Assembly: GCA_963662275.1 (NCBI GenBank) | Contig: OY759316.1 | Location: 1,056,001 to 1,120,000, forward strand | DNA from: Candidatus Cloacimonadales bacterium | GTDB taxonomy: Bacteria; Cloacimonadota; Cloacimonadia; Cloacimonadales; DAONDQ01 | Reading direction: 5' to 3' | Length of the DNA stretch: 64,000 nucleotides | Shown: in pieces, positions 14,605 through 34,030 of the stretch | How positions within the stretch are numbered: position 1 is the first letter of the stretch | Layout of the letters: each line of letters starts with the position of its first letter | Made by a program: the position numbers and the translations under genes | The notes under the pieces: generated by a model | What the model was told of the DNA's origin: nothing | Seen by the model: only the letters and a program-made list of their open reading frames with translations | The model's database searches: none

Positions 14605-14620
14605 CTCTGATATTAATGAA

Positions 14621-14646
14621 GTAGGGATAGACCCACGTGTCTATCC
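14621..14646 (+). repeat. Single REP, family A
   Basis: GTAGGGATAGACCCACGTGTCTATCC, identical to the start of the copies at 6844 and 7776. Confidence 0.85.
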
Positions 14647-14650
14647 AAAA

Positions 14651-14892
14651 TGAATTCCAGTTTCTGGAGTTCATATGAAAGTTGAGATTTTGGAATTCAT
14701 ATGCCCAATTTCTTTATCATTGAATATCTTGCTAAAGGGGCATGTGGACTTCATAATCGAATTTTTGCTACCGGTGATGAAATTCCGTATCATGAAGTCC
14801 ACTTGTCCTTTTAATCATATGTTCATTTGAATATAGCTAGGACAAATGAACTCCAGATACTTAGAATGTTATCTTGGCATGTTGAACTCCAA
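14651..14892. repeat. TGRASTYCA-bounded hairpin element (copy 1, two inverted 63-nt units)
   Basis: 14691-14753 TGGAATTCA-TATGCCC..GGGCATG-TGGACTTCA and 14793-14855 TGAAGTCCA-CTTGTCCT..AGGACAAA-TGAACTCCA; linker TTTTTGCTACCGGTGATGAAA shared with other copies. Confidence 0.75.
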
Positions 14893-14901
14893 GTTTTTCA
14901 A

Positions 14902-15342
14902 TTAATTAACAGGCGGTGGTTCGTTTATCACGAGCCAATACAATCCTAAATGATTGATCGCTTCGGCAAATTGATTGAAATCTACCGGCTTACGGATATA
15001 ACTGTTAGCACCGTTATCATAACTTGATGCTACATCGATATCTTCTTTGGAAGAAGTAAGAACCACAACTGGTAAGCGTTTGGTTTTTGGATGCGACCGA
15101 ATGTTTTTCAGGATTGTCAACCCGTCAATTTTTGGCAGTTTCAGATCAAGTAGTACGACCGTTGGTAGATCATTGATATCCCTAGCAGAATATTTACCTG
15201 TGCAGAACAGATAATTCATCGCTTCTTCTCCATCTTCCACAACAATCAAGTTGTTGCAAATATGACTTTTATTTAAAGCGCGTTTTGTCAATTCTACATC
15301 ACTGGGGTTGTCTTCCACTAAAAGGATGGTTTTTGTATTCAT
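14902..15342 (-). CDS. Single-domain response regulator (Rcp1-like receiver)
   Basis: ILLVEDNPSD, VVLLDLKLPKIDG, VVVLTSS, GANSYIRKPVDF, LGLYWL. Confidence 0.93.
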   Translation of the reverse strand: MNTKTILLVEDNPSDVELTKRALNKSHICNNLIVVEDGEEAMNYLFCTGKYSARDINDLPTVVLLDLKLPKIDGLTILKNIRSHPKTKRLPVVVLTSSKEDIDVASSYDNGANSYIRKPVDFNQFAEAINHLGLYWLVINEPPPVN

Positions 15343-18300
15343 GAATCCTCCTTAAGAGTAAAGTAAAAAATCGCATATTTATTGATTTCAGCATTTGCCC
15401 AAATTTTTCCACCATGCCTGTTAATTATTCTTTTAACGGTAGCTAGACCAATACCAGTACCAGCAAAATCGGAAGCTTTATGCAGACGCTGGAAAGTTCC
15501 AAACAGCTTATCTACATAAAGCATATCAAATCCAACTCCGTTATCTTTAATATAATATACTAATTTTCCATCTATTTGAGAGCGTCCAAATTCAATTCTT
15601 GCTTGATTTCTTGTCTGCGTATATTTGAAGGCATTATCAAATAGGTCGATTAAGACAATTTCCATGAGCTGAAAGTCGCCTTGATCGAGCATATCGGGTT
15701 GAATGTTTACGACAATGAATCTATTCTTGTTTATAGATTTTAGACGTTGACTTACTATCTCAGCCATCTTGCTCAGATTGAGTTCCTCAAACTCCATTTC
15801 TTCCCTGGATACATGTGCTAGCCTCAAAAGAGCATCTATCACTTGTCCCATATTTTGAGCTTCAGCGCGAATTGTTTCTAAATGTCTTTTCCCCTGAGCA
15901 TCTAATACGTTGCTGTAATCTTCTAACAATACCATACTCCAGCCATCTATACCCCGCAAAAAGGTGCGTAAATCATGTGATACAGAATAGGAGAAGGCTT
16001 CCAATTCTTTATATGCAGCAGATAATTGCTTTGTGCGATCGATGACTTTTTGCTCAAGACTTTCATTTAACAATCTAATGACTTCTTCGGTTTTTTTTCT
16101 ATCCGTGATATCTTGGATGACACCAACGACTTTCATCGGATTGTTGTTTTCGTCCCTGATCAGGACTGCTTTTGATGTGATGATCTTGGTAGCGCTATGA
16201 TTGGCAGGATGTATTTCAAAATCAAGATCATATGTTTTATCCTCTTCAATCAAATCCACTAAAGCCTGGTGAATTCTTTCTTTTTCAGGGATACATGCTT
16301 CTATTTGTTCGATTGGCATCTGACTGGTTTCCTGGGGTAATCCATAAATCCTGAGACTTTCTTCAGATCCCCAGATAGTATCACTTTTCAGATCATATTC
16401 CCAACTGCCAATGTGACCAATAGCTTGAGACATCTTGAGTCTTTCCTGGTTAATTCTAATCTCCCCTTCTGCTTTTGTACGTTCAGTAACATCCATAAAG
16501 AAAGCGGTAACACGTCTTTCACCAGTTTGAATTGCCCTGATATCATAAGCGCCTGAGATTGTCATATCATGATAGACGTAGTCAATGCTGGCAAATGGTT
16601 CACCAGTCAAAGCTACTCTGCGGTAGATCTCAGGAATTTCACTTGTTGCATGCATGGGAAATACTTCCTCAATTTTTCTACCGATAAAAGGCTTATGATC
16701 AAAACCAAGAATCTCATTGGCAGATAAATTGAAGTTAGAAAAGATTAATTCATTATTTTCATCCACAACATAAGTATGAGCACCGAAAGGAACTTTGTCA
16801 ATTACTGATTGTAGCCTTTCTAATGCAACTTGAAGTTTGACTTCTACCTGCTTGCGTTCCGTGATATCCTGAGCAGCTCCAAGAAGTCCAACAATTTTGC
16901 CATTCGCATCGCATTCGACTTTTCCATGCACCCACATCCATCCATTACTACCATCTTTTCGAACAGTCTCTAATTCTAAATCATAAGGATTTCCTGTTTT
17001 AGTTGTATTAGCCAAAGCTGTTGACAACCTCTCCCAACTTTCACGTGTAAATAATTTTTGGTGTTCAGTATAAGGAGGTGGCGGAAGCTCTGGATCAAAG
17101 TCATACATTCTGTAGAGCTCATTCGTCCATTTTACCTGATTGCTTGCAAGATCCAATCGCCAACTACCAATCTTAGCAATTCGCTGTGTTTCATTTAAAT
17201 CCTTCTCGCTTAATCGAAGAGCAATTTCAGCATTATATCTGTCAGTAATATCCTGCCACTGGGCGATGGTTGTTAATAAGTATGAGCCATCCTTAGAGTA
17301 GATGTTTGCAGAATTCCACAAGGCTATTCGCACCATATCATCTTTTGTTTGAATCGGAATTTCCACTACATCCCAGTTTTCTCCGGCTGATGTTTCCATA
17401 ATCTTATGGAATGATACATCTCTGCTTACTTCAGGAAACAAAATCTTGAGATACATACCAATCACTTCATTGCTTTCATAACCGGTCATTCTCTCGAAAG
17501 CATGGTTAAATCTCGTTATTTTGTATTCATTATCCCAGACAATGATCGGTGCATTGGCACAGTTAAACAGGGATTCAAGATACTCTGTAGTTTCCTTCAG
17601 TTGATCAGTAATTTGCTTTTTCAAAGTAATATCGCTGACTGAAGATAAAAAGAAAAGTGGTTGATTACTCGCATCTTTTTGTATTGTAGTTTGCAATTCC
17701 ACCCAGACAATACTGCCGTTCTTATGGAGATAACGCTTTTCAAATCTAACACTCTTTGCTTCGCCTGCTAAAAGCATATCGATATGATGTTGACTTACAT
17801 CAATATCATCGGGATATGTAATCTCAGTCCAATTCGCTGCATGGAATTCCTCTTCTGTGTATCCTAGAATATCACAAAAAGCTTTATTGACCTTCAAATC
17901 GCCATTCATATAAGTGAGAGAGATGCCAACCGGTGAGTTGGTGAAGATGTTACGGAAATTCTCTTCACTGATCTGCAAAGCTTCTTCTGCTCTTTTATGC
18001 TCAGTGATATCCCTGATAATAGCTTGCTGTAAGATTTCATCGTCGATCGATATAGAACGGATACTTGCTTCCACCTCGATATGTCTGCCATCCTTTGCCA
18101 GGTGAGTAATCTCCATGCGGATCCCTTCTTTAGCAAGTGAGTCCCAATCGAAATCACTTTGCAGATGGCGCATAGAAGTTAAACGTAAATCATCAAGATT
18201 CAATTTTACCAGTTCGTCTTCTGTATAGCCATAAGTATCGATTGCCTTTTGATTTACATCAATGATATTGCGGTTTTTATCCAAGGTCAAGATGATATCA

Positions 18301-20051
18301 TTGGAGTATTTTGTGAGATTGGCAACTCGCTCCGCATATACCTGACGTTCCCTCGTAAGTGTATATTGTCTTTGCAGCCAGAGTTGGTCTCTATTTTTTT
18401 CCCTGTATCTGATCATAAATGCAACAAGGAAGTTTAAAAGAATAACAAAACTGAGGATGAACCATATTCTTGATCTCAATGGTCCATAGATTTCCGATCG
18501 ATCTATTTTTGATACGGAATACCAAGGGGTTCCGGGAATCGTGCCGATCATAGCAAGAACAGGTTTGCCACGATAGTCCATGCCTTCCACAATCCCTTTT
18601 TTCCCTTTGACTGCCATTACTGCCGGAAGAAGATTGTATTTGTCGATTGAATATCGCAAACGGAAAGCTGTATTTTTCTTATGTCTCAATTCATTCATAT
18701 AGACAACATCATTTCCTTCCCTGCGTACTAGAAGTGTCTCACCGCTTTTGCTGTAAGTAGGCCAGTTCTGAATCAAAGGATAGAGGTAAAGTGCTGGATC
18801 GTATTGAATGAGCCATATTGCCTGGGGTTTACCAGAACTGATTGAGACTGGTATCCAGATATTTAAACGGGTATTATAATGATTATCTGTACTATGATCA
18901 ACATCAATCTGAAAATCAGATTCGCATATTTTATTTTCAGCTAATGCACAATAATATGATGAATCATGAAGCAAATCAAATTTGTATGACCCGTTTGGTA
19001 TGCTGATTAGTTTTGTACCTTGTTTATCATATAAAACAAATCTGGCATATTTGTAATTTTGCTGACGATTTAGCATCCACTGTTCAATTTCATTTCTTTT
19101 TATTTCATTTGATTTGTCCTTAAGATAACTGATAACCGCATTTTTTACGATGACATTATTTAGAATAACGTCAGCATCAGCTAATTTATCCTGATACCAC
19201 TTGCTTATTTGATCTGTTTTTAGATCACCAATGATTTTTAATTCCTGGAAAGCTGAATTCCGAGCTGCATTATAAGAAAACCTCAGAACAACAATACCAC
19301 AGATTAAAATCAGAAAGGATATTAGGATATAATTACTTGCTGCACTGCTGCTTATGAGATGACTTGTCAGTTTTGAACTTCCAACTTCTTCATGAGAAAT
19401 ACCGGGGATTAATTCTCTGAAGCCATAAATACTCAGTATCGCAAAGTTGAGCAGAAAAAAGGCAAGTGCTGAATATAATGCCATTGTCAAAACGGATGAG
19501 TCAAAAAATATGGGCATACCTGCAGCAAAGCTGAGAATGATTGTTAGGCAAAAAAGAATATTTAAGATAGTTACAGATAATCCGACATATTGAAGGATTT
19601 TCCATTTACCATGCATTTTATGATTAAACAGCAGAGATATTACTGTTAAAATAGCCACAAAAGCTGTAGTAGGAGATATTACTCCAAGCTGTATGCCATT
19701 GATGTAACGATCTCCACTTATCATTTTATCGATTATCGGGGTACCCAAGTTTCCAAGTCGTATTACGATAACATACATGCAATATGAAATGATCGTTCCT
19801 AACAGTGTATAAAATATCAACTTATAATATTTGGTTGTATCATAGGATAACGAAAAGAGAGTACAAAAACAAAGAAACAGAATTGTGAAAGCCGAAGTAG
19901 GAGCCAAAGGCAATAAATCTGAGCGGAATGCTGATAATTCCCAACTGTGATGCAACCAGTTCAACAATCCAAGTATTGTGGAGATTATCACCAGAATTAT
20001 TAGTATCTCAACTGGCTTCCATAAGCGTTTCAGCGTAAACTTCATATTCAT
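15339..20051 (-). CDS. Large membrane multi-PAS sensor histidine kinase with Cache-like extracytoplasmic domain
   Basis: Multiple TM helices; GETLLVRREG..DYRGKPVL Cache-like segment; about six PAS/PAC repeats; SYSVSHDLR H-box; DNGVGF and GTGIGLATV. Confidence 0.9.
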   Translation of the reverse strand: MNMKFTLKRLWKPVEILIILVIISTILGLLNWLHHSWELSAFRSDLLPLAPTSAFTILFLCFCTLFSLSYDTTKYYKLIFYTLLGTIISYCMYVIVIRLGNLGTPIIDKMISGDRYINGIQLGVISPTTAFVAILTVISLLFNHKMHGKWKILQYVGLSVTILNILFCLTIILSFAAGMPIFFDSSVLTMALYSALAFFLLNFAILSIYGFRELIPGISHEEVGSSKLTSHLISSSAASNYILISFLILICGIVVLRFSYNAARNSAFQELKIIGDLKTDQISKWYQDKLADADVILNNVIVKNAVISYLKDKSNEIKRNEIEQWMLNRQQNYKYARFVLYDKQGTKLISIPNGSYKFDLLHDSSYYCALAENKICESDFQIDVDHSTDNHYNTRLNIWIPVSISSGKPQAIWLIQYDPALYLYPLIQNWPTYSKSGETLLVRREGNDVVYMNELRHKKNTAFRLRYSIDKYNLLPAVMAVKGKKGIVEGMDYRGKPVLAMIGTIPGTPWYSVSKIDRSEIYGPLRSRIWFILSFVILLNFLVAFMIRYREKNRDQLWLQRQYTLTRERQVYAERVANLTKYSNDIILTLDKNRNIIDVNQKAIDTYGYTEDELVKLNLDDLRLTSMRHLQSDFDWDSLAKEGIRMEITHLAKDGRHIEVEASIRSISIDDEILQQAIIRDITEHKRAEEALQISEENFRNIFTNSPVGISLTYMNGDLKVNKAFCDILGYTEEEFHAANWTEITYPDDIDVSQHHIDMLLAGEAKSVRFEKRYLHKNGSIVWVELQTTIQKDASNQPLFFLSSVSDITLKKQITDQLKETTEYLESLFNCANAPIIVWDNEYKITRFNHAFERMTGYESNEVIGMYLKILFPEVSRDVSFHKIMETSAGENWDVVEIPIQTKDDMVRIALWNSANIYSKDGSYLLTTIAQWQDITDRYNAEIALRLSEKDLNETQRIAKIGSWRLDLASNQVKWTNELYRMYDFDPELPPPPYTEHQKLFTRESWERLSTALANTTKTGNPYDLELETVRKDGSNGWMWVHGKVECDANGKIVGLLGAAQDITERKQVEVKLQVALERLQSVIDKVPFGAHTYVVDENNELIFSNFNLSANEILGFDHKPFIGRKIEEVFPMHATSEIPEIYRRVALTGEPFASIDYVYHDMTISGAYDIRAIQTGERRVTAFFMDVTERTKAEGEIRINQERLKMSQAIGHIGSWEYDLKSDTIWGSEESLRIYGLPQETSQMPIEQIEACIPEKERIHQALVDLIEEDKTYDLDFEIHPANHSATKIITSKAVLIRDENNNPMKVVGVIQDITDRKKTEEVIRLLNESLEQKVIDRTKQLSAAYKELEAFSYSVSHDLRTFLRGIDGWSMVLLEDYSNVLDAQGKRHLETIRAEAQNMGQVIDALLRLAHVSREEMEFEELNLSKMAEIVSQRLKSINKNRFIVVNIQPDMLDQGDFQLMEIVLIDLFDNAFKYTQTRNQARIEFGRSQIDGKLVYYIKDNGVGFDMLYVDKLFGTFQRLHKASDFAGTGIGLATVKRIINRHGGKIWANAEINKYAIFYFTLKEDS

Positions 20052-20183
20052 CTCCTAGAATGAATATCAATCCATTATCCCGGTAGCATGATAAAGAATG
20101 GTTAACATTCCTAATGAAGTATTTTTACATCTTAGTCTTCTTTACTATATTAACTTTTATGCAATATGATGTCAAATTAAAAA

Positions 20184-20263
20184 GTAGAGACGCCCAAGGT
20201 GGGCGTCTCATTTCCCTGATTGACAGATGAATGGGATGAGACGCCCTTGTAGGTCGTCTCTAC
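20184..20263. repeat. REP doublet, family B, at the RAYT 3' end
   Basis: GTAGAGACGCCCAAGGTGGGCGTCTC ... GAGACGCCCTTGTAGGTCGTCTCTAC; overlaps the RAYT stop codon. Confidence 0.88.
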
Positions 20264-20793
20264 GGTTCAAAATACAAATCATCATTTTTCCATGTTTTGG
20301 GATTGTTGATAATATATTGCCGTATTATATCTAGTTCACCTTCTCGAATGATATGATCATAGAATCTCGATTGCCATGCGAAATTGATACCTTCTTTCTT
20401 CATCGTTATTGTACAAATACGTTTGTATTGATTGATAATAACACCTAATGTAGAGACGCTCAACTTGGGCGTCTCAATTGTAGTGTGACCGGATGAGACG
20501 CCCTTGTAGGTCGTCTCTACGATGTTAATAATGCCATGAATATGATTCGGCATAATTACGTAGTTATCTAATTGAACATTTGGAAAATGCGAAGGTATTT
20601 CATTCCAATATTTCAGAGCAATTTGTCCTGCTACAGATAATACTATTGTCTCATCCATAACATCACCAAAATAATACGCATGATTATTTGTGCAAATTGT
20701 TACGAAATACAAACCAGGTTGGGAATAGTCGAAGTCATTTAGTCGAATGGAATCGATACGGTATAGTCCTTTAAATTTTTGAGAATCTAACAT
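20260..20793 (-). CDS. REP-associated tyrosine transposase (RAYT / TnpA-REP, Y1 HUH nuclease)
   Basis: YFVTICT, HUH motif YVIMPNHIHGII, WQSRFYDHIIR, catalytic YIINNP; GTAG REPs on both sides; SD AAGGAGG. Confidence 0.92.
   Translation of the reverse strand: MLDSQKFKGLYRIDSIRLNDFDYSQPGLYFVTICTNNHAYYFGDVMDETIVLSVAGQIALKYWNEIPSHFPNVQLDNYVIMPNHIHGIINIVETTYKGVSSGHTTIETPKLSVSTLGVIINQYKRICTITMKKEGINFAWQSRFYDHIIREGELDIIRQYIINNPKTWKNDDLYFEP
20450..20520. repeat. Intragenic in-frame REP doublet inside the RAYT gene
   Basis: 71 nt, one mismatch to 20854-20924; translated as VETTYKGVSSGHTTIETPKLSVST. Confidence 0.92.
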
Positions 20794-20853
20794 AATTACC
20801 CTCCTTATTATGAAATATATTTATTCTGCAAATACAATTTTGTCAATATTAAA

Positions 20854-20975
20854 GTAGAGACGCCCAACTTGGGCGTCTCAATTGTAGTGTGACCGGATGA
20901 GACGCCCTTGTAGGTCGTCTCTACGGCACAATTGACGGATGGATGGGATGAGACGCCCAAGTTGGGCGTCTCTAC
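20854..20975. repeat. REP cluster, family B, upstream of RAYT
   Basis: Doublet 20854-20924 plus a third REP GAGACGCCCAAGTTGGGCGTCTCTAC at 20950-20975. Confidence 0.9.
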
Positions 20976-21413
20976 ATGGCATTACTAATTAATCTTGACA
21001 TGGATATAAAGTTAGGTAAATTTTAAATAAAAAATCAAAGAAATGAAAATTCCTTCTGTTGGAAGGAAAGGACGCAAGAATGAAGAAAGATGCCATCGGT
21101 TCAAAGCAAAAACCAACTGCTGCCATTGTTAAATTGCCTGATACTGAAGATTCTCTATCAAAGAGAAGATTTCCCATCATAGCCATAGGTGCTTCTGCCG
21201 GAGGATTGGCTGCGTATGAAACTTTCTTTTCCGCCATGCCATCCACAACTGTCAGCGGTATGTCCTTTATTATTGTGCAACATCTTTCACCCGACTACAA
21301 AAGCATTCTTTCAGAATTGATTGGAAGATATACAAAGATGTCGGTGTATGAAGTAACAGATGGTTTAATTGTAAAGCCAAACAGTGCCTACATCATTCCT
21401 CCCAATAAAGATA

Positions 21414-23274
21414 GAGACTGTTCATGAAGTTATTCATAATATTCAATAAGTTAGAAAGTAGCAAGTTGAAAAAAGTGGTCGAAACGGTCATAATTTAACA
21501 TACCTTCCAGAATTGACAGATAAGCTCTGCTAAGGACACCAAATCACAAGTTAAGCTTTTTGACTAAAATTGAAAAACACGCGATTATAAGTAATGTTTC
21601 GAAGCCGTTTCTGACTAAATGTGTAGTTAAAATCATATAAAATAGTTCTTTACAAGTTTTTTGCTATAGCTTCAATGGCATTTGTTACCTGGTAACAAAA
21701 GGGAGGATATTATGACAAAAAAACACTCCAATTCAAGAAGCGGTAAGTGTTAGTCATGAAAGTAACCAATACCATGTAAGTATTAACGTACCATTTTCAT
21801 TCACTTTGCCTGAGACAACATCAAACCACAAGTTCTTAATAGCGTTTCTACGCTTATTAGTAGGAATAGGCGGAGACAACCTCCTTACACTTCAGCAAAT
21901 AGCTGATCTGTTTAACTACGCAGACCGCAGGAATGTACATAATTTCTGGCAAGAGTTTGAGCAGCATGGTCATGATATCCTGGCATATTTAAGCCGGAAA
22001 GTTGACCTGCTGGAGTGTATTCCTCAGATCGAGAATTTTGTTATCAATAACCTGCTTTTACCTTTAAATGTCATGTATCAGGAGTTCATCAGCCATCATG
22101 ATTTTAAAATGTCCTATACCACTTTCTGCAAATATGCTTCTCAGGTCAATTCTCTGTCTGTAGTTAAGCAAGCTCAGAAGCTTCTTCTGAAAAAGACAGT
22201 AGGCGGTGATGCTGTACATCTGCTGAAACTGCTTGCCGGTCAGCAGAATACACCTGTTATCTGTGACAGACTCCTGGAACAAATGAAGACTGCTAAAGGC
22301 AATACATCCCATAGAACCGCCGATGCAAAGCCGTTCCATAGTCTGGAACGCAAGAACCTGTGTCTGCTGGTACATTACCTGGTTGGAAGCGGTATGAACT
22401 TCGAGACGATAGCTTTGCTGCTCAACACCTGTAAAGCTACAGTCTCAAATCTCTGGCATGAAATCGCTGACCTGCAGAGCCTGATTCTGAACTCAATCGG
22501 TAAGTGGAGCGGAAAGATCAGCATTGATGAGAAATATGTGAAGATCAAAGGTATTCCGTACTATGTCATCAGTATTGTTGATTTTGTGACTCACATCCCT
22601 CTGTTTTGTGAGTTGTATCCTGACACAAAGAAAGAATCATTCGAAGCATGTTTCAGAACCTTCAGACAGCTCTACAGGAAAGATCCAACCCTGATTGTCA
22701 GTGATGGCAGTAAATCGTTAGCAGTTGCAAGAAAAACAGTGTTTCCAAAAGTCCATTACCAACTCTGTAAGTTCCATAAGATACGAAATCTCTTCAAAAG
22801 AATCAGTCAATGTCATCTCCCTGAAGACAGGGACAAGTTCTTTAAGAAGAGGATTATGAAAGCTTTCCGAAGAGAAACGGCGGGCGGAAGGAAAAAGGGT
22901 ATCGCAAGCCTGACAGCTATTACTCCCCCAACCGCCGCCGAATACATCAAAAGCAATATCATTAGTGATTGGAGACACCTCAGCAAAGGTTTGACTTCCA
23001 ATGTCTCTGAACGCTGGAACCGCAAAATCAAGAAGGTGACATCCGGTAGATTTGGACTAAAATCTGAAGAAACCACCCGCAACCTTGTGTTTTCGCTTTG
23101 GTTCAAAGAACTGGTCGATAAAGGTCAACCAATCATGCGTCAGGAATCACTTTTAGCAAGTTTAAATATCTCCCGCATATGTCAAGAAAATGTGGATTGG
23201 TCGCACTTAGACCACTTTTTCTCTGTCACTACCAATAAGGCTGCGTAAAATGGAGGTTAATTTTGAACAGTCTC
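21414..23274 (+). mobile_element. Complete insertion sequence (1861 bp), IS256/Mutator-like DDE type
   Basis: 11-bp terminal inverted repeats GAGACTGTTCA / TGAACAGTCTC; 8-bp target duplication TAAAGATA at 21406-21413 and 23275-23282. Confidence 0.93.
21806..23248 (+). CDS. DDE transposase (true start probably ATG 21712, out of frame by one A)
   Basis: ISIDEKYVK (D1), IVSDGSKSL (D2), QLCKFHKIRN (CxxH), TSNVSERWN (E); the frame is open upstream to 21716. Confidence 0.88.
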   Translation: MPETTSNHKFLIAFLRLLVGIGGDNLLTLQQIADLFNYADRRNVHNFWQEFEQHGHDILAYLSRKVDLLECIPQIENFVINNLLLPLNVMYQEFISHHDFKMSYTTFCKYASQVNSLSVVKQAQKLLLKKTVGGDAVHLLKLLAGQQNTPVICDRLLEQMKTAKGNTSHRTADAKPFHSLERKNLCLLVHYLVGSGMNFETIALLLNTCKATVSNLWHEIADLQSLILNSIGKWSGKISIDEKYVKIKGIPYYVISIVDFVTHIPLFCELYPDTKKESFEACFRTFRQLYRKDPTLIVSDGSKSLAVARKTVFPKVHYQLCKFHKIRNLFKRISQCHLPEDRDKFFKKRIMKAFRRETAGGRKKGIASLTAITPPTAAEYIKSNIISDWRHLSKGLTSNVSERWNRKIKKVTSGRFGLKSEETTRNLVFSLWFKELVDKGQPIMRQESLLASLNISRICQENVDWSHLDHFFSVTTNKAA

Positions 23275-26025: not shown

Positions 26026-26182
26026 TGGAGTTCAACTTGCCAAGATGACTTTGAAATGATCTGAATGTAATAGTCAAGTTGGATTTCAAGCCTGAATTGA
26101 GTAATAAGTTACGTTGGGTTTGAAGTCCAAATTTCCTACTAGCTGGGTAGTCACAAAAGATACGAAGGAAATTTGAACTCCA
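26026..26182. repeat. TGRASTYCA-bounded hairpin element (copy 2, inverted 63+62 nt units)
   Basis: 26026-26088 TGGAGTTCA-ACTTG..CAAGT-TGGATTTCA; 26121-26182 TGAAGTCCA-AATTTCCT..AGGAAATT-TGAACTCCA. Confidence 0.75.
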
Positions 26183-26213
26183 AATGATGCAAAGGACGAA
26201 CAAAGGAGTTACC

Positions 26214-27902
26214 ATGAACTCTTGCGAATCTGATCTGGAAAAGGTAAAAGAACTTCGAGAGCAAGCTGAGCAATTAGCTAATTCAAAGCTGGATACTTTA
26301 GATTTTAACTCTTTATCCAAAGAGGAAATTCAGAAACAACTTCATGAATTGAATGTTCATCAGATAGAGCTAAAACTCCAAAATGAGGAATTGCAAACTA
26401 CCCAGGAAGAATTGGAACTTTCGCGTGCAAAGTACTTTGAATTGTATAATAATGCTCCAGTTGGTTACATCACTCTAAATGATAAAGAAATGATCGTGGA
26501 AGCTAATCTACTATTCTGCAATTTATTGGCATATCCGAGAAAAGATATCATCAACAGGCTTTTTTCGAATCATATCATTCCAGATGACCAGGATATATAT
26601 TATAAATTCACAAAGCAATTCAAGAAATCAGATTCAAAGGAGTCGTGTGAACTGAGGTTAGTAACAAAAAATCTTAAGCAGTTTTATGCCAGTATTGCTG
26701 CTACCAGGGAATATATAGAAGGAACAGATGAATTTATCTATTATTTTGTAGTCACCGATATTTCTGAAAGAAAGTTGCAGGAATTAATGAAAAATGCTCA
26801 GTATCGTCTTCTTCAAACCCTTATCGATAGTCCAGAGGACATTATATTCTCTCTCGATACAAATTACCGTTATACTGCTTTCAACAACAATCATAAAGAA
26901 GAAATGAGGAAGATTTGGAAAGCAGATATTTCTGTTGGTGATAGGATTTTAGAATACATGTCTATACCTGAATTCGTTGATCAAGCTAAACAAAGCATGG
27001 ATAGGACTCTCCAAGGTGAACGGTTTACGGAAGTGATTCATCAGTCTGATCAGAATAAATACTACGAAATGGATTGGAATCCGGTTTATGGCGATGATTC
27101 GAAAATAGTCGGTTTGACAGCTTTTGTTAGAGATATTACGACAAGAAAAATGGCTGAGGAGATCATCAAAAACAACAATGTATTCTTAGAACAGAAAGTG
27201 AAGGAAAGAACCTCTGAACTGGAGTTATCGAAAAATGAGCTTGAAGCATTCTCTGCCTCGGTTGCTCACGATCTTACAAGTCCTTTGCGTTCAATAGATG
27301 GTTTTTCACAAATCTTGTTAGAAGATTACGATATGGTATTAGATGATGCAGCAAAACTTCTGTTAAAGAGAATCAGGAAAAGCGCTATCAAAATGGATGA
27401 GATTATTACATCTCTACTTCATTTAGCCCATATAACGCAAAGTGAATTATATCAAGCTCCAATAGAAATGAAGAGATTAGTTTCGAATGTATGGGAAGAA
27501 ATTCAACGCGAAACCAAAGGTGCAACATCTTTGAATCTTACTGAACTTCCGGATGCAATAGGAGACATCAACCTAGTCAAAATTGTATGGGAAAATCTTC
27601 TTTCGAATGCACTCAAATTTACACTAAAAATGCCACTTCGAATGATCACGATAACCGGAGTTGTAAAAGAACAATTTGCGGAGTATTGTGTCGCTGATAC
27701 AGGTGCCGGATTTGATATGGAGTATTACAGTCAATTGTTCGAAACATTTCATCGGTTGCATAGTGACCAGGAATTTGCAGGTAACGGTATAGGCTTATCC
27801 ATTGTTCAAAGAATCGTGAATAAACATGGCGGGAAGATTTGGGCAACCAGCGAAGTGAATAAAGGTGCGAAGTTTTATTTTACACTACCCGTGATTTCGT
27901 AG
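26214..27902 (+). CDS. Cytoplasmic PAS-PAS histidine kinase
   Basis: N-terminal HELNVHQIELKLQNEEL coiled coil, two PAS, H-box VAHDLTSPLRSIDG, NLLSNALKF, DTGAGF, GIGLSIV; ATG 26214 follows AAGGAG. Confidence 0.92.
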   Translation: MNSCESDLEKVKELREQAEQLANSKLDTLDFNSLSKEEIQKQLHELNVHQIELKLQNEELQTTQEELELSRAKYFELYNNAPVGYITLNDKEMIVEANLLFCNLLAYPRKDIINRLFSNHIIPDDQDIYYKFTKQFKKSDSKESCELRLVTKNLKQFYASIAATREYIEGTDEFIYYFVVTDISERKLQELMKNAQYRLLQTLIDSPEDIIFSLDTNYRYTAFNNNHKEEMRKIWKADISVGDRILEYMSIPEFVDQAKQSMDRTLQGERFTEVIHQSDQNKYYEMDWNPVYGDDSKIVGLTAFVRDITTRKMAEEIIKNNNVFLEQKVKERTSELELSKNELEAFSASVAHDLTSPLRSIDGFSQILLEDYDMVLDDAAKLLLKRIRKSAIKMDEIITSLLHLAHITQSELYQAPIEMKRLVSNVWEEIQRETKGATSLNLTELPDAIGDINLVKIVWENLLSNALKFTLKMPLRMITITGVVKEQFAEYCVADTGAGFDMEYYSQLFETFHRLHSDQEFAGNGIGLSIVQRIVNKHGGKIWATSEVNKGAKFYFTLPVIS

Positions 27903-28016
27903 AGACACCCTACATGGGTGTCTCATCCGGTTGGGGTAGATATGAGACGCCCAGGTTGGTCGTCTCTACGCTGGCGGGTGGAAATGAGACGCCCAGGTTG
28001 GTCGTCTCTACGCTGG
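27899..28016. repeat. REP cluster, family B, with a 42-nt tandem duplication
   Basis: GTAGAGACACCCTACATGGGTGTCTC, then two copies of ATGAGACGCCCAGGTTGGTCGTCTCTACGCTGG at 27942 and 27984. Confidence 0.85.
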
Positions 28017-28145
28017 TGGAGGGAAACAAGACAGGATGCTTGTATTGACCCATTCCTCTCTTTGGATAAAGAGGTGGGTGTAGGGGCTTGCGGTAGTATG
28101 CCCTTCTTCGGAGAGTTTGAAAGCTGATTGTGAACTAATCGGGTT

Positions 28146-28338
28146 TGAACTTCCCTGAAAACAGGTTTTCGCTACCGAGAATGAAAATGTCGATTTTGAA
28201 GTCCGAATTTCCTACTACTTGAGAAGTCGTAATAGATTCGATGGAAATTTGAACTCCAAACTCTTAGCTTTCATGTAAAGTCCATTTGCCCTTTTAGTCA
28301 GGTATACAATGATAGTTTTTTAGGGCAATTGAACTCCA
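28146..28338. repeat. TGRASTYCA-bounded hairpin element (copy 3, leader plus two tandem units)
   Basis: Leader TGAACTTCCCTGAAAA..TTTTCGCTACCG..ATGAAA; units 28197-28258 and 28276-28338; alignable over its length with 31597-31787. Confidence 0.8.
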
Positions 28339-28386
28339 AAGATCACCAGAACCCAAGAATGCAATCCTATGTAACAGGAGGAAGAA

Positions 28387-29607
28387 ATGAATTTTAAGAA
28401 AGCTGATTTAACAAAGGCAAGAAATCTGCTCAATCGTGCGGAGAAATTGGCAAAGAATAACGTAGCTATGGACGATATCGATATTGATTCTTTGTCTCAA
28501 GAGGATATCAATAAGGTTGTTCACGATTTGCAGGTGCACCAGATAGAGCTGGAACTGCAGAATGAGGAATTGCGGAATATTCAGTCAGAACTTGAAACAT
28601 CCCGCGCGATGTTTTTTGAACTATATAATATGGCTCCAGTGGGTTATATGACTTTAGATGATAATGGCTTTATCATGGAAGTTAACCTGACTTTCTGTAA
28701 TCTACTAGGCTACCAGCGCCAGGATATTATTCGAAAGCCCATTACTAATTATATCTTTTCCGATGACCAGGACATCTTTTATAAACACAAAAAGCAATTT
28801 CAGGATTTAGGCAAAATAGCTACATGTAAATTGAGAATGCTAGCCCACAATGGCAAAAAGTTTTATGTATGTATGGAAGCTACAAGAATCTATGACAAAG
28901 AAATAGATGAATTCGTCTACAATTGCGTTATCCGTGATATTTCAGAGGAAAAACATCATGAACAAATGCTGAATAAACAGTTTATTCTCATGCAGGCATT
29001 AATCAACAGTCCTAACGATATGATTTACTCTCTTGATAATGAATATCGTTATACTGCTTTTAACAAAAATCACAAAGAAGAAATGAGAAAAGACTGGCAA
29101 GCAGAGATTGAAATCGGTGAGAGTATTTTAGACTATATAAACATACCGGAATATGCAGAAAAAACAAAGCAAAGTATAGACAAGGTTCTGAAAGGAGTGA
29201 GATTCATCGAAGTTGTGCACCTGGTTAATCAGAACGTCTATTATGAGATGGACTGGAAACCTATTATTGATGGTACTTTAAAGATCGTCGGCGTAACCAG
29301 TATTGTTCGTGATATCACAGCACATAAAATTGCTGAAGAAATTATCCAAAATAATAATGTGGAAATTGAACGAAAAGTCAAAGACAGAACAATCGCATTA
29401 GAGCTTTCGACCAATGAGCTAAATACTTTCTCTTCCAATGTTGCTCACAATTTTACGAAGCCATTGCAACGAATTGACGAAATTTCTCTTATCTTACTTG
29501 AGGATGATAACGGTGTCTTAGATGCAGAAGACAAACTTTTAGTAGATGAAATCAGGGAAAATACCAATATCATGAAAAAACTTCTCATGACTCTTCCACA
29601 TTCGTAA
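28387..29607 (+). CDS. Truncated paralogue of the 26214 kinase (PAS-PAS-HisKA, no ATPase domain); possible pseudogene
   Basis: Colinear with 26214-27902 (HQIEL.LQNEEL, YRYTAFN.NHKEEMRK); degenerate H-box VAHNFTKPL; ends just after the HisKA helices. Confidence 0.8.
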   Translation: MNFKKADLTKARNLLNRAEKLAKNNVAMDDIDIDSLSQEDINKVVHDLQVHQIELELQNEELRNIQSELETSRAMFFELYNMAPVGYMTLDDNGFIMEVNLTFCNLLGYQRQDIIRKPITNYIFSDDQDIFYKHKKQFQDLGKIATCKLRMLAHNGKKFYVCMEATRIYDKEIDEFVYNCVIRDISEEKHHEQMLNKQFILMQALINSPNDMIYSLDNEYRYTAFNKNHKEEMRKDWQAEIEIGESILDYINIPEYAEKTKQSIDKVLKGVRFIEVVHLVNQNVYYEMDWKPIIDGTLKIVGVTSIVRDITAHKIAEEIIQNNNVEIERKVKDRTIALELSTNELNTFSSNVAHNFTKPLQRIDEISLILLEDDNGVLDAEDKLLVDEIRENTNIMKKLLMTLPHS

Positions 29608-29675
29608 GACATCCACGTTGGGGTTCTCTACGATTTGTTTTTTTTGAATGAGACGCCTATGTTGGGCATCTTTAC
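29604..29675. repeat. Degenerate REP doublet, family B
   Basis: GTAAGACATCCACGTTGGGGTTCTCTAC ... GAGACGCCTATGTTGGGCATCTTTAC. Confidence 0.6.
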
Positions 29676-29754
29676 ATGAAATAAAAATAATTAATCCAAT
29701 CCTTGACATCCAGATTATCATATTGATAAATATAACCTAGCCATGGAGGATTTC

Positions 29755-30264
29755 ATGATTGAAATTGTAAAAGGTGATATTACGAAGATGGTAATGGATG
29801 TTATCGTCAATGCTGCAAATTCATCTTTGCGTGGTGGAGGTGGTGTGGACGGAGCTATTCACAGGGTTGCAGGTCCATTATTGCTGGAAGAATGCCTGAA
29901 AATTGGACATTGCCCGGTCGGTGAAGCATGTTTAACACCCGGATTCAAATTACCTGCTCCACACGTGATTCACACTGTTGGTCCTGTTTGGCGTGATGGC
30001 TCTCATGGAGAAGATGACTTGCTTGCATCCTGCTATCGGAACAGTCTGAAAATCGCAAGTGAGCATGGTTTTGAGACAATTGCCTACCCGGCAATATCCA
30101 CAGGTGCTTTCGGTTTTCCGAAAACCCGTGCTGCCCAGATTGCTATTCGTGAGATAAAAAATCATACTTTACAGAGCAATTTCCCCAAATTCGTATATGT
30201 TGTCTGTTTTGATGAAGAAACATACAAGATTTATGATGAATTACTTTTGGATATCGAGCTATAG
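29755..30264 (+). CDS. Macro domain O-acetyl-ADP-ribose deacetylase (YmdB-like)
   Basis: GDITK, IVNAANSSLRGGGGVDGAIHRVAG, VIHTVGPVW, PAISTGAFGFP; ATG 29755 follows GGAGG. Confidence 0.93.
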   Translation: MIEIVKGDITKMVMDVIVNAANSSLRGGGGVDGAIHRVAGPLLLEECLKIGHCPVGEACLTPGFKLPAPHVIHTVGPVWRDGSHGEDDLLASCYRNSLKIASEHGFETIAYPAISTGAFGFPKTRAAQIAIREIKNHTLQSNFPKFVYVVCFDEETYKIYDELLLDIEL

Positions 30265-30338
30265 AATTTTTTACAGTTTCTATCTGATGAGAACAGTTAC
30301 ATATTTTCTCTTGATTTATTCGATTCGAAGGAGTTATT

Positions 30339-30974
30339 TTGCATAATATTAATCCTGATTTGCTTGAGTTCTTCTCCAAAAATTACAAACCTGGTATTAT
30401 AGGGATGGTCGGAACAAAAGATAAGATTGGGAATTCGATTCGTCGTGGGCAAAGTCGCATGATGAATGGAAAACCATCTCGATGGTCTCATTGTTTTATT
30501 ATGGGTAGGAAAAGGCTGGATTTGCGAAATTCCGTGGAGACACCTGTAGAAAGCATTTATATTTTTGAAAGCGATATTAAACTAAATATCGAACATATGC
30601 AGATTCGTAATGGAGCGCAGGAGAATTGGCTGGGGAAGTGGTGCGATGTAAAAGTAGAATATGCAGCGATTATCGACTTTGGGCTGAATTTATTCCAGGA
30701 GCAATTGGTTTTAGCAAGTGCTTTACAAATGATAGACGATGAAGTCATGTATCCTATCGGCGGTTTATTTCATACTTGGTTGGCAATCCAAATGCACAGG
30801 TTCGGTTTTAAAAACCCGCTTGCCGGATATCATGCCATGTTTTGCAGTGCTTATGCAAGACGCTGTTATCAGTCTGCCGGCGCAGATTTTCTCAGTTCAG
30901 AAGTCGATCTATTTAATACATCTCCTGAACATATTGCTCAGGCTGGCAAGAGTAAGATGATTCTTTGGAAGTAA
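30339..30974 (+). CDS. Permuted papain-like (YiiX/YebB-type NlpC/P60) hydrolase, putative
   Basis: His-before-Cys order: PG.IG..SRWSHCFI near the N-terminus and MFCSAYARRCY..G.D..TSPEHI near the C-terminus; start uncertain. Confidence 0.55.
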   Translation: MHNINPDLLEFFSKNYKPGIIGMVGTKDKIGNSIRRGQSRMMNGKPSRWSHCFIMGRKRLDLRNSVETPVESIYIFESDIKLNIEHMQIRNGAQENWLGKWCDVKVEYAAIIDFGLNLFQEQLVLASALQMIDDEVMYPIGGLFHTWLAIQMHRFGFKNPLAGYHAMFCSAYARRCYQSAGADFLSSEVDLFNTSPEHIAQAGKSKMILWK

Positions 30975-30995
30975 CAATCATACCCGGAGGGCTTA

Positions 30996-31307
30996 ATGCT
31001 AGTCTTTCTAAGTGATCTGCATTTTGAAGATGCCACTGCTGGAAAACACAATATTAATTCAAAAGCCTTTGAAGGTTTTACTGATGATTTGAAAAAACTC
31101 AGCAAGAATGCAAAACATATCCATATCGTACTGCTTGGAGATATCTTCGATCTGAATCGTACAACAGCCTGGTTTGAAAAAGGTGCTGCTAAGCCTTGGA
31201 CATCCGATGATTTGTCCAATCCTGAAGTAGGAGTTGTTGCTGAAAAGATACTGGAGAATATCATTGATAAGAACAAAGACTCATTATCAATCTTAAATTT
31301 TACATAA
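30996..31307 (+). pseudogene. N-terminal fragment of a calcineurin-like metallophosphoesterase
   Basis: VFLSDLHF (DxH) and VLLGDIFD (GDxxD) are present; the GNH and later His motifs are absent; only 103 aa. Confidence 0.7.
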
Positions 31308-31414
31308 TTTCGAATTATTTTGAAATTCTCCCTCTATTTAGTCCTTAAATAAATTCCCTACAATCACTCTCTCTCCTAAAAACGCACTTTAAACCCACCT
31401 TTAGAATTAACATA

Positions 31415-31518
31415 AAACAATCGAAACACAAAAGAAACATAACCCAAACAGCACCGCACATAGGAGCGGTTGTCCTGCGGTTGTGCTGCGGTGGTTCTGC
31501 GGTTCTGCTGCAGTTCTT
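31415..31518. repeat. 11-bp-period tandem/inverted repeat element
   Basis: GAGCGGTTGTC CTGCGGTTGTG CTGCGGTGGTT CTGCGGTTCTG CTGCAGTTCTT preceded by a decaying inverted arm (AAACAATCGAA ACACAAAAGAA ACATAACCCAA ACAGCACCGCA). Confidence 0.7.
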
Positions 31519-31596
31519 TTTCAAGAGGATTACAAGATTCCGATTGCCTAACAAATTGTATATTATCAAGTGAGGTTAGTCTATTGTCGCTAATGC

Positions 31597-31787
31597 TGAA
31601 CTTCCCTGAAAAGTATTTTCGCTACTGATGATGAAAGCTCGAGATGAAGTCCACATTTCCTAGTATTTGGGTATTCGTAAAAGATTCGAAGGAAATATGA
31701 ACTCCATGCTCTTGGTTTTCATGTAAAGTCCGCGATTCCTACAAATGATTAGGAGAATAGTTATACTAGAAGGAATTTTGAACTCCA
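31597..31787. repeat. TGRASTYCA-bounded hairpin element (copy 4)
   Basis: Leader TGAACTTCCCTGAAAA..TTTTCGCTAC..ATGAAAGCT; units 31645-31706 and 31724-31787. Confidence 0.8.
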
Positions 31788-31867
31788 GTATGCTTATCTG
31801 GACTTTTTTTCCTCAGAGTCTTATTTATCAATTCTGATTCTATTCAACTAAATTGATACGGTTAAAT

Positions 31868-33511
31868 TTAAAACAAATAACCTTCTTCCTCTTCTTTTGC
31901 TTTTAAGGAAGGTTTTTTATAAGGCTCTATGACGTTTGGAGGTAATACGACTCTAATTTGCTCTGCGAATAAATCTTGTACCGTTAATAATTGTATTTTA
32001 GGAATCTTAGTTTGGGTAATTCCTTCCATATAGCGGTAATTAAAAGTTCCTTCTTTCACAGCTTCTTCAATCATTCCTTTTGTAGGCTGTTCAAGAGTTA
32101 TTAGGATTCCAAATTCAGCATTCTGGCTTTGAATAGTTCCTTTCAAGTCTCTCACCATTCCCGGATTGATACTGTGACCACCTTTTACTGAGATAATCCC
32201 CTTTCCCACTTTATCTTTCCTGGTATGATCTACAAAATTGATTACACCGTCCACACCCTTATCACCTGATTTTACCGTTGGAGTAGCATTTAATTGACTG
32301 ACAGCCCAGACTTCAAATTGGAATGGTGCCTGTTCAGCTAGTTTAGTTGCAGATAGTAAATCGTTTGGAACACCATTTACTTTAAAATCTACTTTCTCGA
32401 TAAGGTCATTTTTGATTAATCGCTTCTTAATTACATCTATCGAAAGATAGGTAATATCAATTCCCACCCATTTTCTTTTCTGCTTTTCTGCTGCTGCTAT
32501 AGTAGTTCCACAACCACAGAATGGGTCTAAAACGATATCACCTTCATTAGTACTCGCTTTGATAACTCTCTCAAGCAAGGCTTCTGGTTTTTGAGTAGGA
32601 TAACCCATTCGTTCTTCTTTGGAAGCTATCTTAATATCAGTCCAGATATCTGGACACTTGTTGCCCTGCATCTCATCTAAATAACGTATTAAACGAGGAC
32701 ATCCGTTACTCGTATAGGCAATTTTCCCAGCATCGTCTAATTGCCTCATCTTCTCTTCATTATAAACGAAACATCTTGAAGTTGGAGGAGTATATCCTTT
32801 CCAAGAATAGATCTGTCCTTTTGATGCTCGTGACATGGGGGCAGTCAAATCCGTTAATTGATATTTCCTATCATTCTTACCGATTTTATTATAAAAATTC
32901 TCAACATAGTCTTCATCATATGCAGCATATTGTTGGTTCCAAGTCCAGTCATTTGTTTTCGAGTAAAATAGGATTACATCATGTATCCAACCGTATTTCT
33001 TTTGAACATTTCCTTTGGCATCAGTCCTCTTCCAAATGATTTCGTTATGGAAATTACCTGTACCGAAAACAGCGTCCATTAACATTTTGATATAATGACT
33101 TGCTATGGGATCGCAATGAAGATATATGCTACCAGTTGGTTTTAATACTCTTTTCATTTCTAAAAGCCTGGGAGCCATCATACACAAATATGCCATCAAT
33201 GGACATTCTGCGAGATAACTACGCATAGCTTTCATCAAATCTATCAGCTTTTGACTTGGAGGTTCAATGGTAAGCGTACCCATGAGTAATTCAATATATT
33301 CTTTTTCTGCTTCTGCACCCCAATTCCAGGTATCTTCAAATGTCTTTATTTGTGAAGTTGCACCTTTCAAGCCATTGGATTCTGGTTTGAAAATGATATT
33401 GTAATCGCGACCACTTTGAAAAGGTGGATCAAGGTATATCAGGTCAATGCTGGAGTCTTTGATGCTTTTCTTAAGAATATCAAGGTTATCCCCATAAAAC
33501 AGATTGTTCAT
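31868..33511 (-). CDS. Solitary N6A/N4C DNA methyltransferase (beta class) with C-terminal Mrr-like domain
   Basis: LFYGDNL, LIYLDPPF, GSIYLHCD, GYPTQKPEALLERVI, VLDPFCGCGTT; C-terminal PFQFEVWA..GDKGVDG..ISVKGG..VRDLKG. Confidence 0.9.
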   Translation of the reverse strand: MNNLFYGDNLDILKKSIKDSSIDLIYLDPPFQSGRDYNIIFKPESNGLKGATSQIKTFEDTWNWGAEAEKEYIELLMGTLTIEPPSQKLIDLMKAMRSYLAECPLMAYLCMMAPRLLEMKRVLKPTGSIYLHCDPIASHYIKMLMDAVFGTGNFHNEIIWKRTDAKGNVQKKYGWIHDVILFYSKTNDWTWNQQYAAYDEDYVENFYNKIGKNDRKYQLTDLTAPMSRASKGQIYSWKGYTPPTSRCFVYNEEKMRQLDDAGKIAYTSNGCPRLIRYLDEMQGNKCPDIWTDIKIASKEERMGYPTQKPEALLERVIKASTNEGDIVLDPFCGCGTTIAAAEKQKRKWVGIDITYLSIDVIKKRLIKNDLIEKVDFKVNGVPNDLLSATKLAEQAPFQFEVWAVSQLNATPTVKSGDKGVDGVINFVDHTRKDKVGKGIISVKGGHSINPGMVRDLKGTIQSQNAEFGILITLEQPTKGMIEEAVKEGTFNYRYMEGITQTKIPKIQLLTVQDLFAEQIRVVLPPNVIEPYKKPSLKAKEEEEGYLF

Positions 33512-33604
33512 TTGCCCCTTCCTTATAAATTAATAACACATAATGATGATAGATTTAAATGCAATACTAGTGTCAAGATTAATTGAAGTCAAGCATACTA
33601 TTTT

Positions 33605-33806
33605 TGAACTTCCCTGAAAACGAGTTTTCGCTACCGGGGATGAAAGCTGAGTTCTCCGAGTGAACTGATTTATCTATTTGTCGAGGAGACGACATTTATA
33701 CAACCTTGAGTGTAGTATCGATTCATTTCGATACAATTTCTCCTTCGTCGAAATCACTCAATGAACCGTGTATTCTCTCGTTCGATACTTTAGCTTTCAT
33801 GTAAAG
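33605..33806. repeat. Scaffold of the hairpin element (copy 5) carrying a different internal insert
   Basis: TGAACTTCCCTGAAAA..TTTTCGCTACCGGGGATGAAAGCT [143 nt] AGCTTTCATGTAAAG. Confidence 0.7.
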
Positions 33807-34030
33807 GACGAAGTAGAAAAGCATTCTCAGAGCATAGCCGTTTGAAAACAGCGTTCCGATATTAGTAATGGAAATGTGCTTTCTGTTTACATGTAAAACA
33901 AGCGTGGCTGAAAAAAAACTCATTATTAGCGTCTTCATACCCAAGAGTAATTTAGCTTATTCTAATATATTGACGAAATTGTATTTGTACTTTTTGTGAC
34001 AGCACTTTATAATATCAAGTGGAGGAAATT

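Follow-up and report, generated by a model that had tools for sequence, protein, structure and literature searches.

Dispersed hairpin repeats of a complete Cloacimonadales genome as a probable REP/REPIN-type family associated with a RAYT-like transposase

The question raised by this locus is what to make of eight short, imperfect hairpins, here called units, that lie in pairs in a stretch of 64,000 nucleotides (the window; contig OY759316.1, positions 1,056,001 to 1,120,000, or G000:C1:1056001-1120000) from a Candidatus Cloacimonadales bacterium whose genome is a single contig of 4.38 Mb and complete (99.97%). A sequence-only reading of this DNA had proposed a strand-folding DNA mobility substrate, 'like REPIN in concept' but matching no known class, and hence an undescribed system. 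We consider it likely that the units form a family of repeats of the REP/REPIN type (REP, repetitive extragenic palindrome; REPIN, a REP doublet forming a hairpin; such DNA is of a known kind, either selfish or domesticated) and serve as substrates of a HUH/Y1 tyrosine transposase of the REP-associated kind (RAYT). The core of the earlier idea is thereby supported, as units flank an HUH/Y1 RAYT-like gene in seven related genomes; the claim of an undescribed system is not, as the units fit REP/REPIN-RAYT systems (REPtron/TIRtron) in both layout and enzyme, and differ from the known kind by the absent GTAG tag and a long loop.

Inspection of the window places all eight units exactly where the sequence-only reading had put them, with lengths of 62-64 nt. 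They are given below together with the leader and trailer modules that accompany some of them.

14691..14753, minus strand: unit, 63-nt hairpin, stem ATGCCC/GGGCAT; head-to-head with the unit at 14793..14855
14754..14792, plus strand: head-to-head spacer of 39 nt, containing a degenerate leader (14762-14783, 3 mismatches)
14793..14855, plus strand: unit, 63 nt, stem CTTGTCC/GGACAAA
26026..26088, minus strand: unit, 63 nt, stem AACTTG/CAAGTT; head-to-head with the unit at 26121..26182 across a spacer of 32 nt
26121..26182, plus strand: unit, 62 nt, stem AATTTCC/GGAAATT
28142..28196, plus strand: leader module, a small hairpin GAAAA-NNNN-TTTTC followed by CGCTACCGAGAATGAAAA; its lower strand reads GTAG and then a palindrome
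28197..28258, plus strand: unit, 62 nt
28259..28275, plus strand: trailer/spacer of 17 nt, AACTCTTAGCTTTCATG, linking tandem units; its CTTTCAT pairs with the ATGAAAG of the leader
28276..28338, plus strand: unit, 63 nt, beginning TAAAGTCC like the second units of tandems
31596..31644, plus strand: leader module
31645..31706, plus strand: unit, 62 nt
31707..31723, plus strand: trailer/spacer, 17 nt
31724..31787, plus strand: unit, 64 nt, of the GATTCC/GGAATT subfamily, followed by the module GTATGCTTATCTGGACTTTTTTTCCTCAGAGTC, the companion of this subfamily elsewhere too
33604..33806, plus strand: leader (33604-33647) and trailer (about 33790-33806) around a different repeated core of ~140 nt, with no unit

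The window has 16 occurrences of the box that bounds the units, TGRASTYCA, where shuffled sequence has 2.95 +/- 1.72 and none of 100 shuffles reaches 16; 11 of the 16 unit ends match it exactly and the remaining 5 are one-base variants. Each unit stands on a 9-nt foot, TGAAGTCCR ... TGAACTCCA, which does not vary from species to species and in which two A.C mismatches are fixed. On top of the foot come 7-8 bp of stem, free in sequence but kept in pairing, and then a loop of 28-31 nt, variable in sequence but kept in length, such that the unit can be described as two inverted 17-nt arms (not REP hairpins themselves) around a spacer of conserved length.

Genome-wide, the exact two-box pattern TRAAGTCC-N40-56-TGAACTCCA has 113 matches (57 forward, 56 reverse) and none in a reversed control, and a relaxed pattern with one mismatch allowed per box has 156 against 1. 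A stem filter retained 143 of these relaxed matches and dropped 13, two of which are degenerate real units that were recovered by an nhmmer profile; the latter counts 158 copies. Unit lengths range over 61-65 nt and cluster at 62-64 nt. Midpoints of 145 of the 158 fall outside crude open reading frame (ORF) calls covering 85% of the genome, and 11 of the other 13 sit under ORFs of just 246-429 nt, so that the unit model may help annotators to tell these repeats apart from small ORFs called on top of them. The lower strand of one subfamily is indeed open, with a 66-aa ORF running over a unit; a coding reading was rejected, given the spread of unit lengths and the closure of the frame in the ATTTCC subfamily.

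That the units act as hairpins is argued most directly by covariation. When 65 distinct units of four genomes are aligned, 151 cells are changed on both sides of the stem, whereas shuffles give 39.6 +/- 5.9 and none of 500 gets to 151; this bears out the compensating stems that the sequence-only reading had noticed. Of all cells 82% are paired, compared to 22-51% when partners are slid, and pairs 11-14 take all four Watson-Crick types. Among the 131 distinct units of the window's genome, pairs 11-16 are Watson-Crick in 122-131, and positions 11-14 show three or four pair types each. Stems as intact as these indicate that some process still copies or selects the units. The accompanying claim, that full pairing of the ends is confined to the TGGAGTTCA strand, is only partly correct. 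It holds for foot positions 3 and 7, which on the top (TGAAGTCC) strand are A.C/C.A in 130 and 120 of the 131 units and therefore G.T on the opposite strand; it fails for position 9, where 55 of the 131 have G.T on the top strand and hence C.A on the other, leaving neither strand fully paired in about 42% of units.

The family extends well beyond this genome. Exact boxes were found in 56 of 232 genomes of the phylum, confined to three families (2/2 in f1, 53/98 in f3 and 1/62 in f11, with 0/70 in the others), and a search with a covariance model built from the same 65 units located the family in 31 of 151 genomes of the order (f1 2/2, including the window's own, f3 29/54, and 0/95 across eleven other families). 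Model counts in relatives extend to the best 35 scored matches per genome; among full counts, the total of about 158 in the window's genome is the largest. Throughout the box-bearing genomes the feet are identical and the length is held to 61-67 nt, while stems and loops differ from genome to genome, a pattern that fits a conserved trans-acting reader of foot and hairpin shape. An identical foot in 56 genomes under a free stem and loop amounts to a natural mutational map of what such an enzyme needs: the foot, its two fixed mismatches and the loop length.

The same constancy of boxes and spacing over a varying interior could also be expected of duplex sites for a dimeric DNA-binding protein, nucleoid-associated or regulatory, contacting quasi-palindromic 9-bp boxes (TGAA-S-TCCA) that face the same side of the helix at a spacing of about 54 bp. 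The two boxes do share their arms and differ at the centre only, and solo boxes stand in the window at 14665 and 14883. Such sites do not predict compensatory changes in the adjoining 7-8 bp, nor a terminal pair that itself covaries (T-A to C-G in 7 of the 65 units), and no candidate binding protein was identified; this alternative, which the sequence-only reading had also offered, leaves the stems unexplained and strikes us as very unlikely.

The most telling evidence for REP/REPIN-type repeats comes from a gene in related genomes. In the congener G001, a gene for a 200-aa Y1_Tnp protein has three units on one side and four on the other, and in G040, which belongs to another family, a homologue with 49% identity again has units on both sides. 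Using the G001 protein as a query across the 151 genomes of the order, and scanning the 30 best loci with the covariance model, we found the gene bracketed by units, at most a few hundred bases away, in seven (G001, G015, G040, G073, G077, G095 and G149), which span two families and five genera. This unit-RAYT-unit arrangement is the layout of a REPtron, and it supplies the co-occurring HUH gene for which the sequence-only reading had advised a search.

The flanked proteins, roughly 190-200 aa long, are RAYT-like. The gene matches Pfam Y1_Tnp (E 3.6e-7) and, over the whole profile, the NCBIfam family 'REP-associated tyrosine transposase' (E 4e-17; 62 bits, below the 80-bit cut-off). A phmmer search of the Protein Data Bank (PDB) with a single RAYT gave no match; a profile of eight members has E. 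coli TnpA_REP (4ER8) as its closest solved structure (E 2.3e-6), the HUH and Y motifs lining up, and next an IS200-type transposase at E 0.71. The motifs of the flanked proteins read NH[FY]H, F[Q/R/S/A/E] instead of WQ, and YIH[LFAY]NP; taken strictly, Y[IV]HLNP is present in four and a literal FQ in two of the eight aligned proteins, and no C-terminal helix-turn-helix (HTH) extension was seen in a Pfam scan.

One further homologue deserves mention at this point: that of G026 (L057, in the region G026:C1:3023118-3026642) is flanked by eight or more GC-rich hairpins of 32 nt. These score weakly against the unit model (17.5 bits) and are probably the cognate REP of the G026 homologue and a distant relative of the unit family.

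How the units are grouped also speaks for REP-like behaviour. The sequence-only reading had described them as always paired, which is true of the window and not of the genome, where the 158 copies are distributed over 109 arrays (68 singles, 34 doubles, 6 triples and 1 quadruple). Neighbours within 400 nt comprise 21 head-to-head, 17 tandem and 2 tail-to-tail pairs, the head-to-head pairs with their TGAAGTCC ends facing at a separation of 20-130 nt and the tandems with a spacer of 17 nt in 10 of 17 cases. This pairing geometry is of the type seen in REPs and bacterial interspersed mosaic elements (BIMEs). No clear replication-strand bias was found on the two replichores (50:39 and 32:37), and an apparent bias towards the nearest gene arises from the head-to-head geometry. 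Further repeat families abut the units in this genome (for example at 1223322, 1990829 and 3669070), among them CAGAATCAAACTCTCCCCTACCC...TTTATCCAAAGGGAGG arrays, and GGACTTTTTTCCACAGAGTC comes after the CGAAGTCC...CTCCG subfamily of units; several repeat modules together make up a mosaic in the intergenic DNA.

Set beside described systems, the units come closest to the REP/BIME REPtron of E. coli (PMC6006769), with which they share intergenic, high-copy palindromes, subfamilies, mosaic inverted and tandem arrays and fixed linkers, as well as (in the seven relatives) a single-copy HUH/Y1 gene bracketed by its own repeats, the E. coli counterpart being 4ER8. Unlike REPs, which measure 20-40 nt with tiny loops, the units are 62-64 nt long with a loop of 28-31 nt, and either side ends in a 9-nt foot, with two mismatches that are fixed; and unlike a REPtron, the window's genome is without the transposase. 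With REPINs they have in common two inverted conserved arms around a spacer, which make up one long hairpin as the replicating unit, and populations of related variants, which a single-copy RAYT is presumed to replicate (Bertels and Rainey; PMC3116915, PMC3337134). They depart from REPINs in that the 17-nt arms are not themselves palindromic, in that the family is common to two bacterial families, and in that a large population exists without its RAYT.

A canonical GT[AG]G REP accompanies most RAYT subclasses in the classification of PMC6006769, which also admits, in subclass 2.6 and class 3, 'atypical' REPs that lack the tag, and notes 'atypical secondary structures' for the Bacteroidetes subclass 2.6. 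The first 28 of the 68 subclass 2.6 entries in its supplement are different hairpins. The box motifs are absent from the supplementary REP table of the same paper, where the two matches are unrelated cyanobacterial REPs, the search having been limited to that table with no wider full-text motif search. For subclass 2.1 PMC6006769 reports no REP-like sequences, and it equates this subclass with the 'TIRYT' genes flanked by terminal inverted repeats (TIRs), that is, Bertels group 1; PMC5581495 clearly links only RAYT groups 2 and 3 to abundant flanking 16-mers. It is subclass 2.1 that the flanked proteins resemble, at the level of three short motifs and not of a tree (NH[YF]H, FQ and Y[IV]HLNP, the second signature in Table 1 of PMC6006769); they differ from it in length, at 190-200 aa against a median of 238, and in having no HTH extension in Pfam. 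TIRYTs and TIRtrons, some TIR families of which are self-complementary and dispersed as dimers or clusters, are described in PMC3733652; as in TIRtrons, the gene in our seven genomes is bracketed by inverted repeats without GTAG, and unlike them the repeats bear no relation to the TIR consensus GGGGWSAS.

A likeness to integron attC sites is also apparent, these being imperfect hairpins of ~60 nt with conserved ends, a variable centre and fixed mismatches, and recognised as folded single strands. The attC core sites have the consensus RYYYAAC/GTTRRRY, which the unit boxes do not fit. Units are moreover dispersed genome-wide in both orientations, unlike a single cassette array, and no integron integrase scores above the family cut-off (best 105.8 bits against 265); we have rejected this assignment.

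Many copies in the window's genome belong to a larger composite. A leader of ~50 nt, consisting of a small hairpin GAAAA-NNNN-TTTTC with a variable loop and then CGCTACCGAKGATGAAAG, precedes 53 of the 143 filtered units, and a trailer of 17-21 nt follows the unit; the ATGAAAG of the leader pairs with the CTTTCAT of the trailer, and the whole folds as an interrupted stem of ~30 bp on either strand. At up to three mismatches the leader occurs 97 times in this genome and once in the congener G001, and was not found in G040, G015 or G034. Where three copies had been said to share it in the window there are four, the fourth (33604-33647) preceding not a unit but the second core of ~140 nt (CTGAGTTCTCCGAGTGAAC ... 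TCGAAATCACTCAATGAACC; window 33648-33789), which recurs within the same leader and trailer at about 18 other sites of the genome, and which has no Rfam match at E<=1. Composites that match another copy over at least 125 nt number 87, with identities of 73-100%, six of them at 99-100%; and the loci of seven identical units share only about 100-130 nt, one segmental duplicate excepted. The amplified entity in this genome is a composite of 125-140 nt (leader hairpin, unit and trailer), and some copies are recent. A search for empty sites gave no usable allele, as contigs from four DNA runs over 14000-33900 showed repeat-induced breaks and cross-joins, and in a comparison with G001 the DNA matches were the repeats alone, with no synteny at the nucleotide level.

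Composites of this kind might alternatively be transcribed, as structured small RNAs or as cis-acting elements of mRNAs (stabilisers or terminators), with the leader as promoter and the hairpin ATGAAAG...unit...CTTTCAT as the RNA. The leader's GAACTT-N16-TCGCTA presumably resembles a promoter of the extracytoplasmic function (ECF) type; whole composites fold as RNA at -32 to -50 kcal/mol on either strand (figures without a shuffle control); the compensatory stem changes would suit an RNA too; the G.T-compatible changes of positions 2, 3 and 7 point to one strand; and convergent gene gaps are over-represented, holding 27 of the 109 arrays compared to 338 of 2948 gaps genome-wide. Against this, 55 of 131 units favour the other strand at position 9, co-directional gaps hold units in both orientations relative to transcription (62 same, 49 opposite), and no U-tract follows the hairpin. 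Rfam returned five tRNAs only across the whole window at gathering score and, at E<=1 over 28000-34000, two chance-level matches elsewhere and none on a unit or leader. The bracketing of a transposase gene in seven genomes would also go unexplained. A structured RNA, as the sequence-only reading had suggested, is without positive support beyond the fold, and we regard it as unlikely.

The assignment of the units to REP/REPIN-type substrates of a RAYT has in turn to contend with a number of observations that weigh against it. The GT[AG]G tag of canonical REPs is missing from the foot, which reads TGAAGTCC / TGAACTCCA. As single DNA strands the eight units of the window fold weakly, at -2.5 to -9.4 kcal/mol, and 4 of the 16 folds reach a z below -2, so the case for a hairpin rests on covariation. 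Units are absent at E<=0.001 from the other 23 of the 30 best RAYT loci, and homologues of similar identity in G088, G116 and G075 have none alongside. A RAYT homologue (E<=1e-30) is in fact present in 9 of 31 unit-bearing genomes as against 42 of 120 unit-free ones, the RAYT subgroup being presumably wider than the unit family and serving other repeats elsewhere; and G034, 99% complete and with at least 31 model matches, has no homologue even at 1e-5, while G117 and G129 are likewise rich in units and lack the RAYT. The complete genome of the window itself lacks an ortholog of the flanked RAYT, with no match at E<=1e-30 and a best tblastn match of 33.6% over 119 aa to a paralog of another type, and the near-perfect state of pairs 11-16 makes an old orphan family unlikely.

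What this genome does have is a wealth of other REP-RAYT pairs. Fifteen loci match Pfam Y1_Tnp and a weak one lies in the window (20260-20793), which makes 16 RAYT-like genes, a number far above the 1.3-1.8 RAYTs per replicon quoted from PMC5581495. These paralogs are diverged, with pairwise identities of 30-64%; besides the window's there are four of ~155-180 aa and eleven of ~210-260 aa, and every paralog is bracketed by its own, different repeat family of tens of copies. None of the 16 has a unit or a leader closer than 1.8 kb, a further point that counts against the assignment, and nothing HUH-like except insertion sequence (IS) genes was found among the genes bracketed by unit arrays here.

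By analogy with E. coli TnpA_REP and IS608 TnpA, we suggest that, while the DNA is being replicated, a RAYT-like enzyme would recognise the hairpin by its shape and its mismatched foot on one of the strands, and would cut and rejoin beside the hairpin; copies might then spread into intergenic DNA as singles, head-to-head pairs and tandems spaced by 17 nt. The cognate enzyme of the lineage would be the RAYT-like protein of ~190-200 aa retained in the seven related genomes. In the window's genome the copies may have been orphaned by a very recent loss of the transposase, may be moved in trans by another RAYT-like paralog, or may have their hairpins kept by selection. About 158 well-kept copies in a complete genome without the cognate transposase make a clean test bed for the persistence and cross-mobilisation of REPs.

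A bolder and rather doubtful proposal, which we offer as speculation, combines two steps: that the units are the first REP-type partner of the RAYT clade of subclass 2.1 (Bertels group 1, 'TIRYT'), recognised via a mismatched 9-nt double foot in place of a GTAG guide, and that the family went on amplifying here after its own transposase had been lost, as a leader-unit-trailer composite cross-mobilised by one of the 16 other RAYT-like paralogs. The lower strand of the leader, GTAG followed by a palindrome, has the canonical form of a REP and could provide the handle for such cross-mobilisation. Should the subclass assignment be true, a large RAYT subclass would gain its first REP partner.

Discrete composites of 125-140 nt that behave as movable units, in a genome with many IS copies, also bring to mind non-autonomous derivatives of a resident IS, akin to miniature inverted-repeat transposable elements or palindrome-associated transposable elements (MITE- or PATE-like), the candidate parents being an IS200/IS605 member or a 2.46-kb element with 13 near-identical copies (for example 1278048-1278845 in G000:C1). 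The latter encodes a tyrosine recombinase of 294 aa together with an ORF of 380 aa that bears an HIH motif, presumably resembling an IS91-family transposase, and lies within 2.5 kb of a unit array in 5 of its 13 copies. Its ends are unrelated to the units; the genome has no TnpB domain; the four short IS200-like Y1 genes that it carries are diverged single copies with other repeats on their flanks; and neither terminal inverted repeats nor target duplications are visible at the ends of composites. We place this origin at the very foot of our scale of likelihood, and retain the view of the units as REP/REPIN-type substrates.

Two neighbours of the units in the window are of separate interest. 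The RAYT-like ORF at 20260-20793 (minus strand, 177 aa; NCBIfam REP_Tyr_transpos, E 3.2e-11) is flanked by a GTAG-type REP of its own (GTAGAGACGCC...GGCGTCTC; window 20186-20975), and the same REP interrupts it internally at about 20449-20520 with the frame kept, like the 'REP inserted in tnpA_REP' that PMC6006769 lists as a trait of subclass 2.4. An ORF for a Mutator/MULE-type transposase (21806-23248, in the region 21661-23228) stands between a CheB-like ORF (21059-21427) and the CheB/CheR-PAS gene at 23282-25960, which it appears to have split from each other. Summed contig depth over 21661-23228 is roughly 35-50x that of neighbouring DNA in X1 and X2, the runs with clean flanking depth; these depths are not copy numbers, and the element is probably a multicopy IS.

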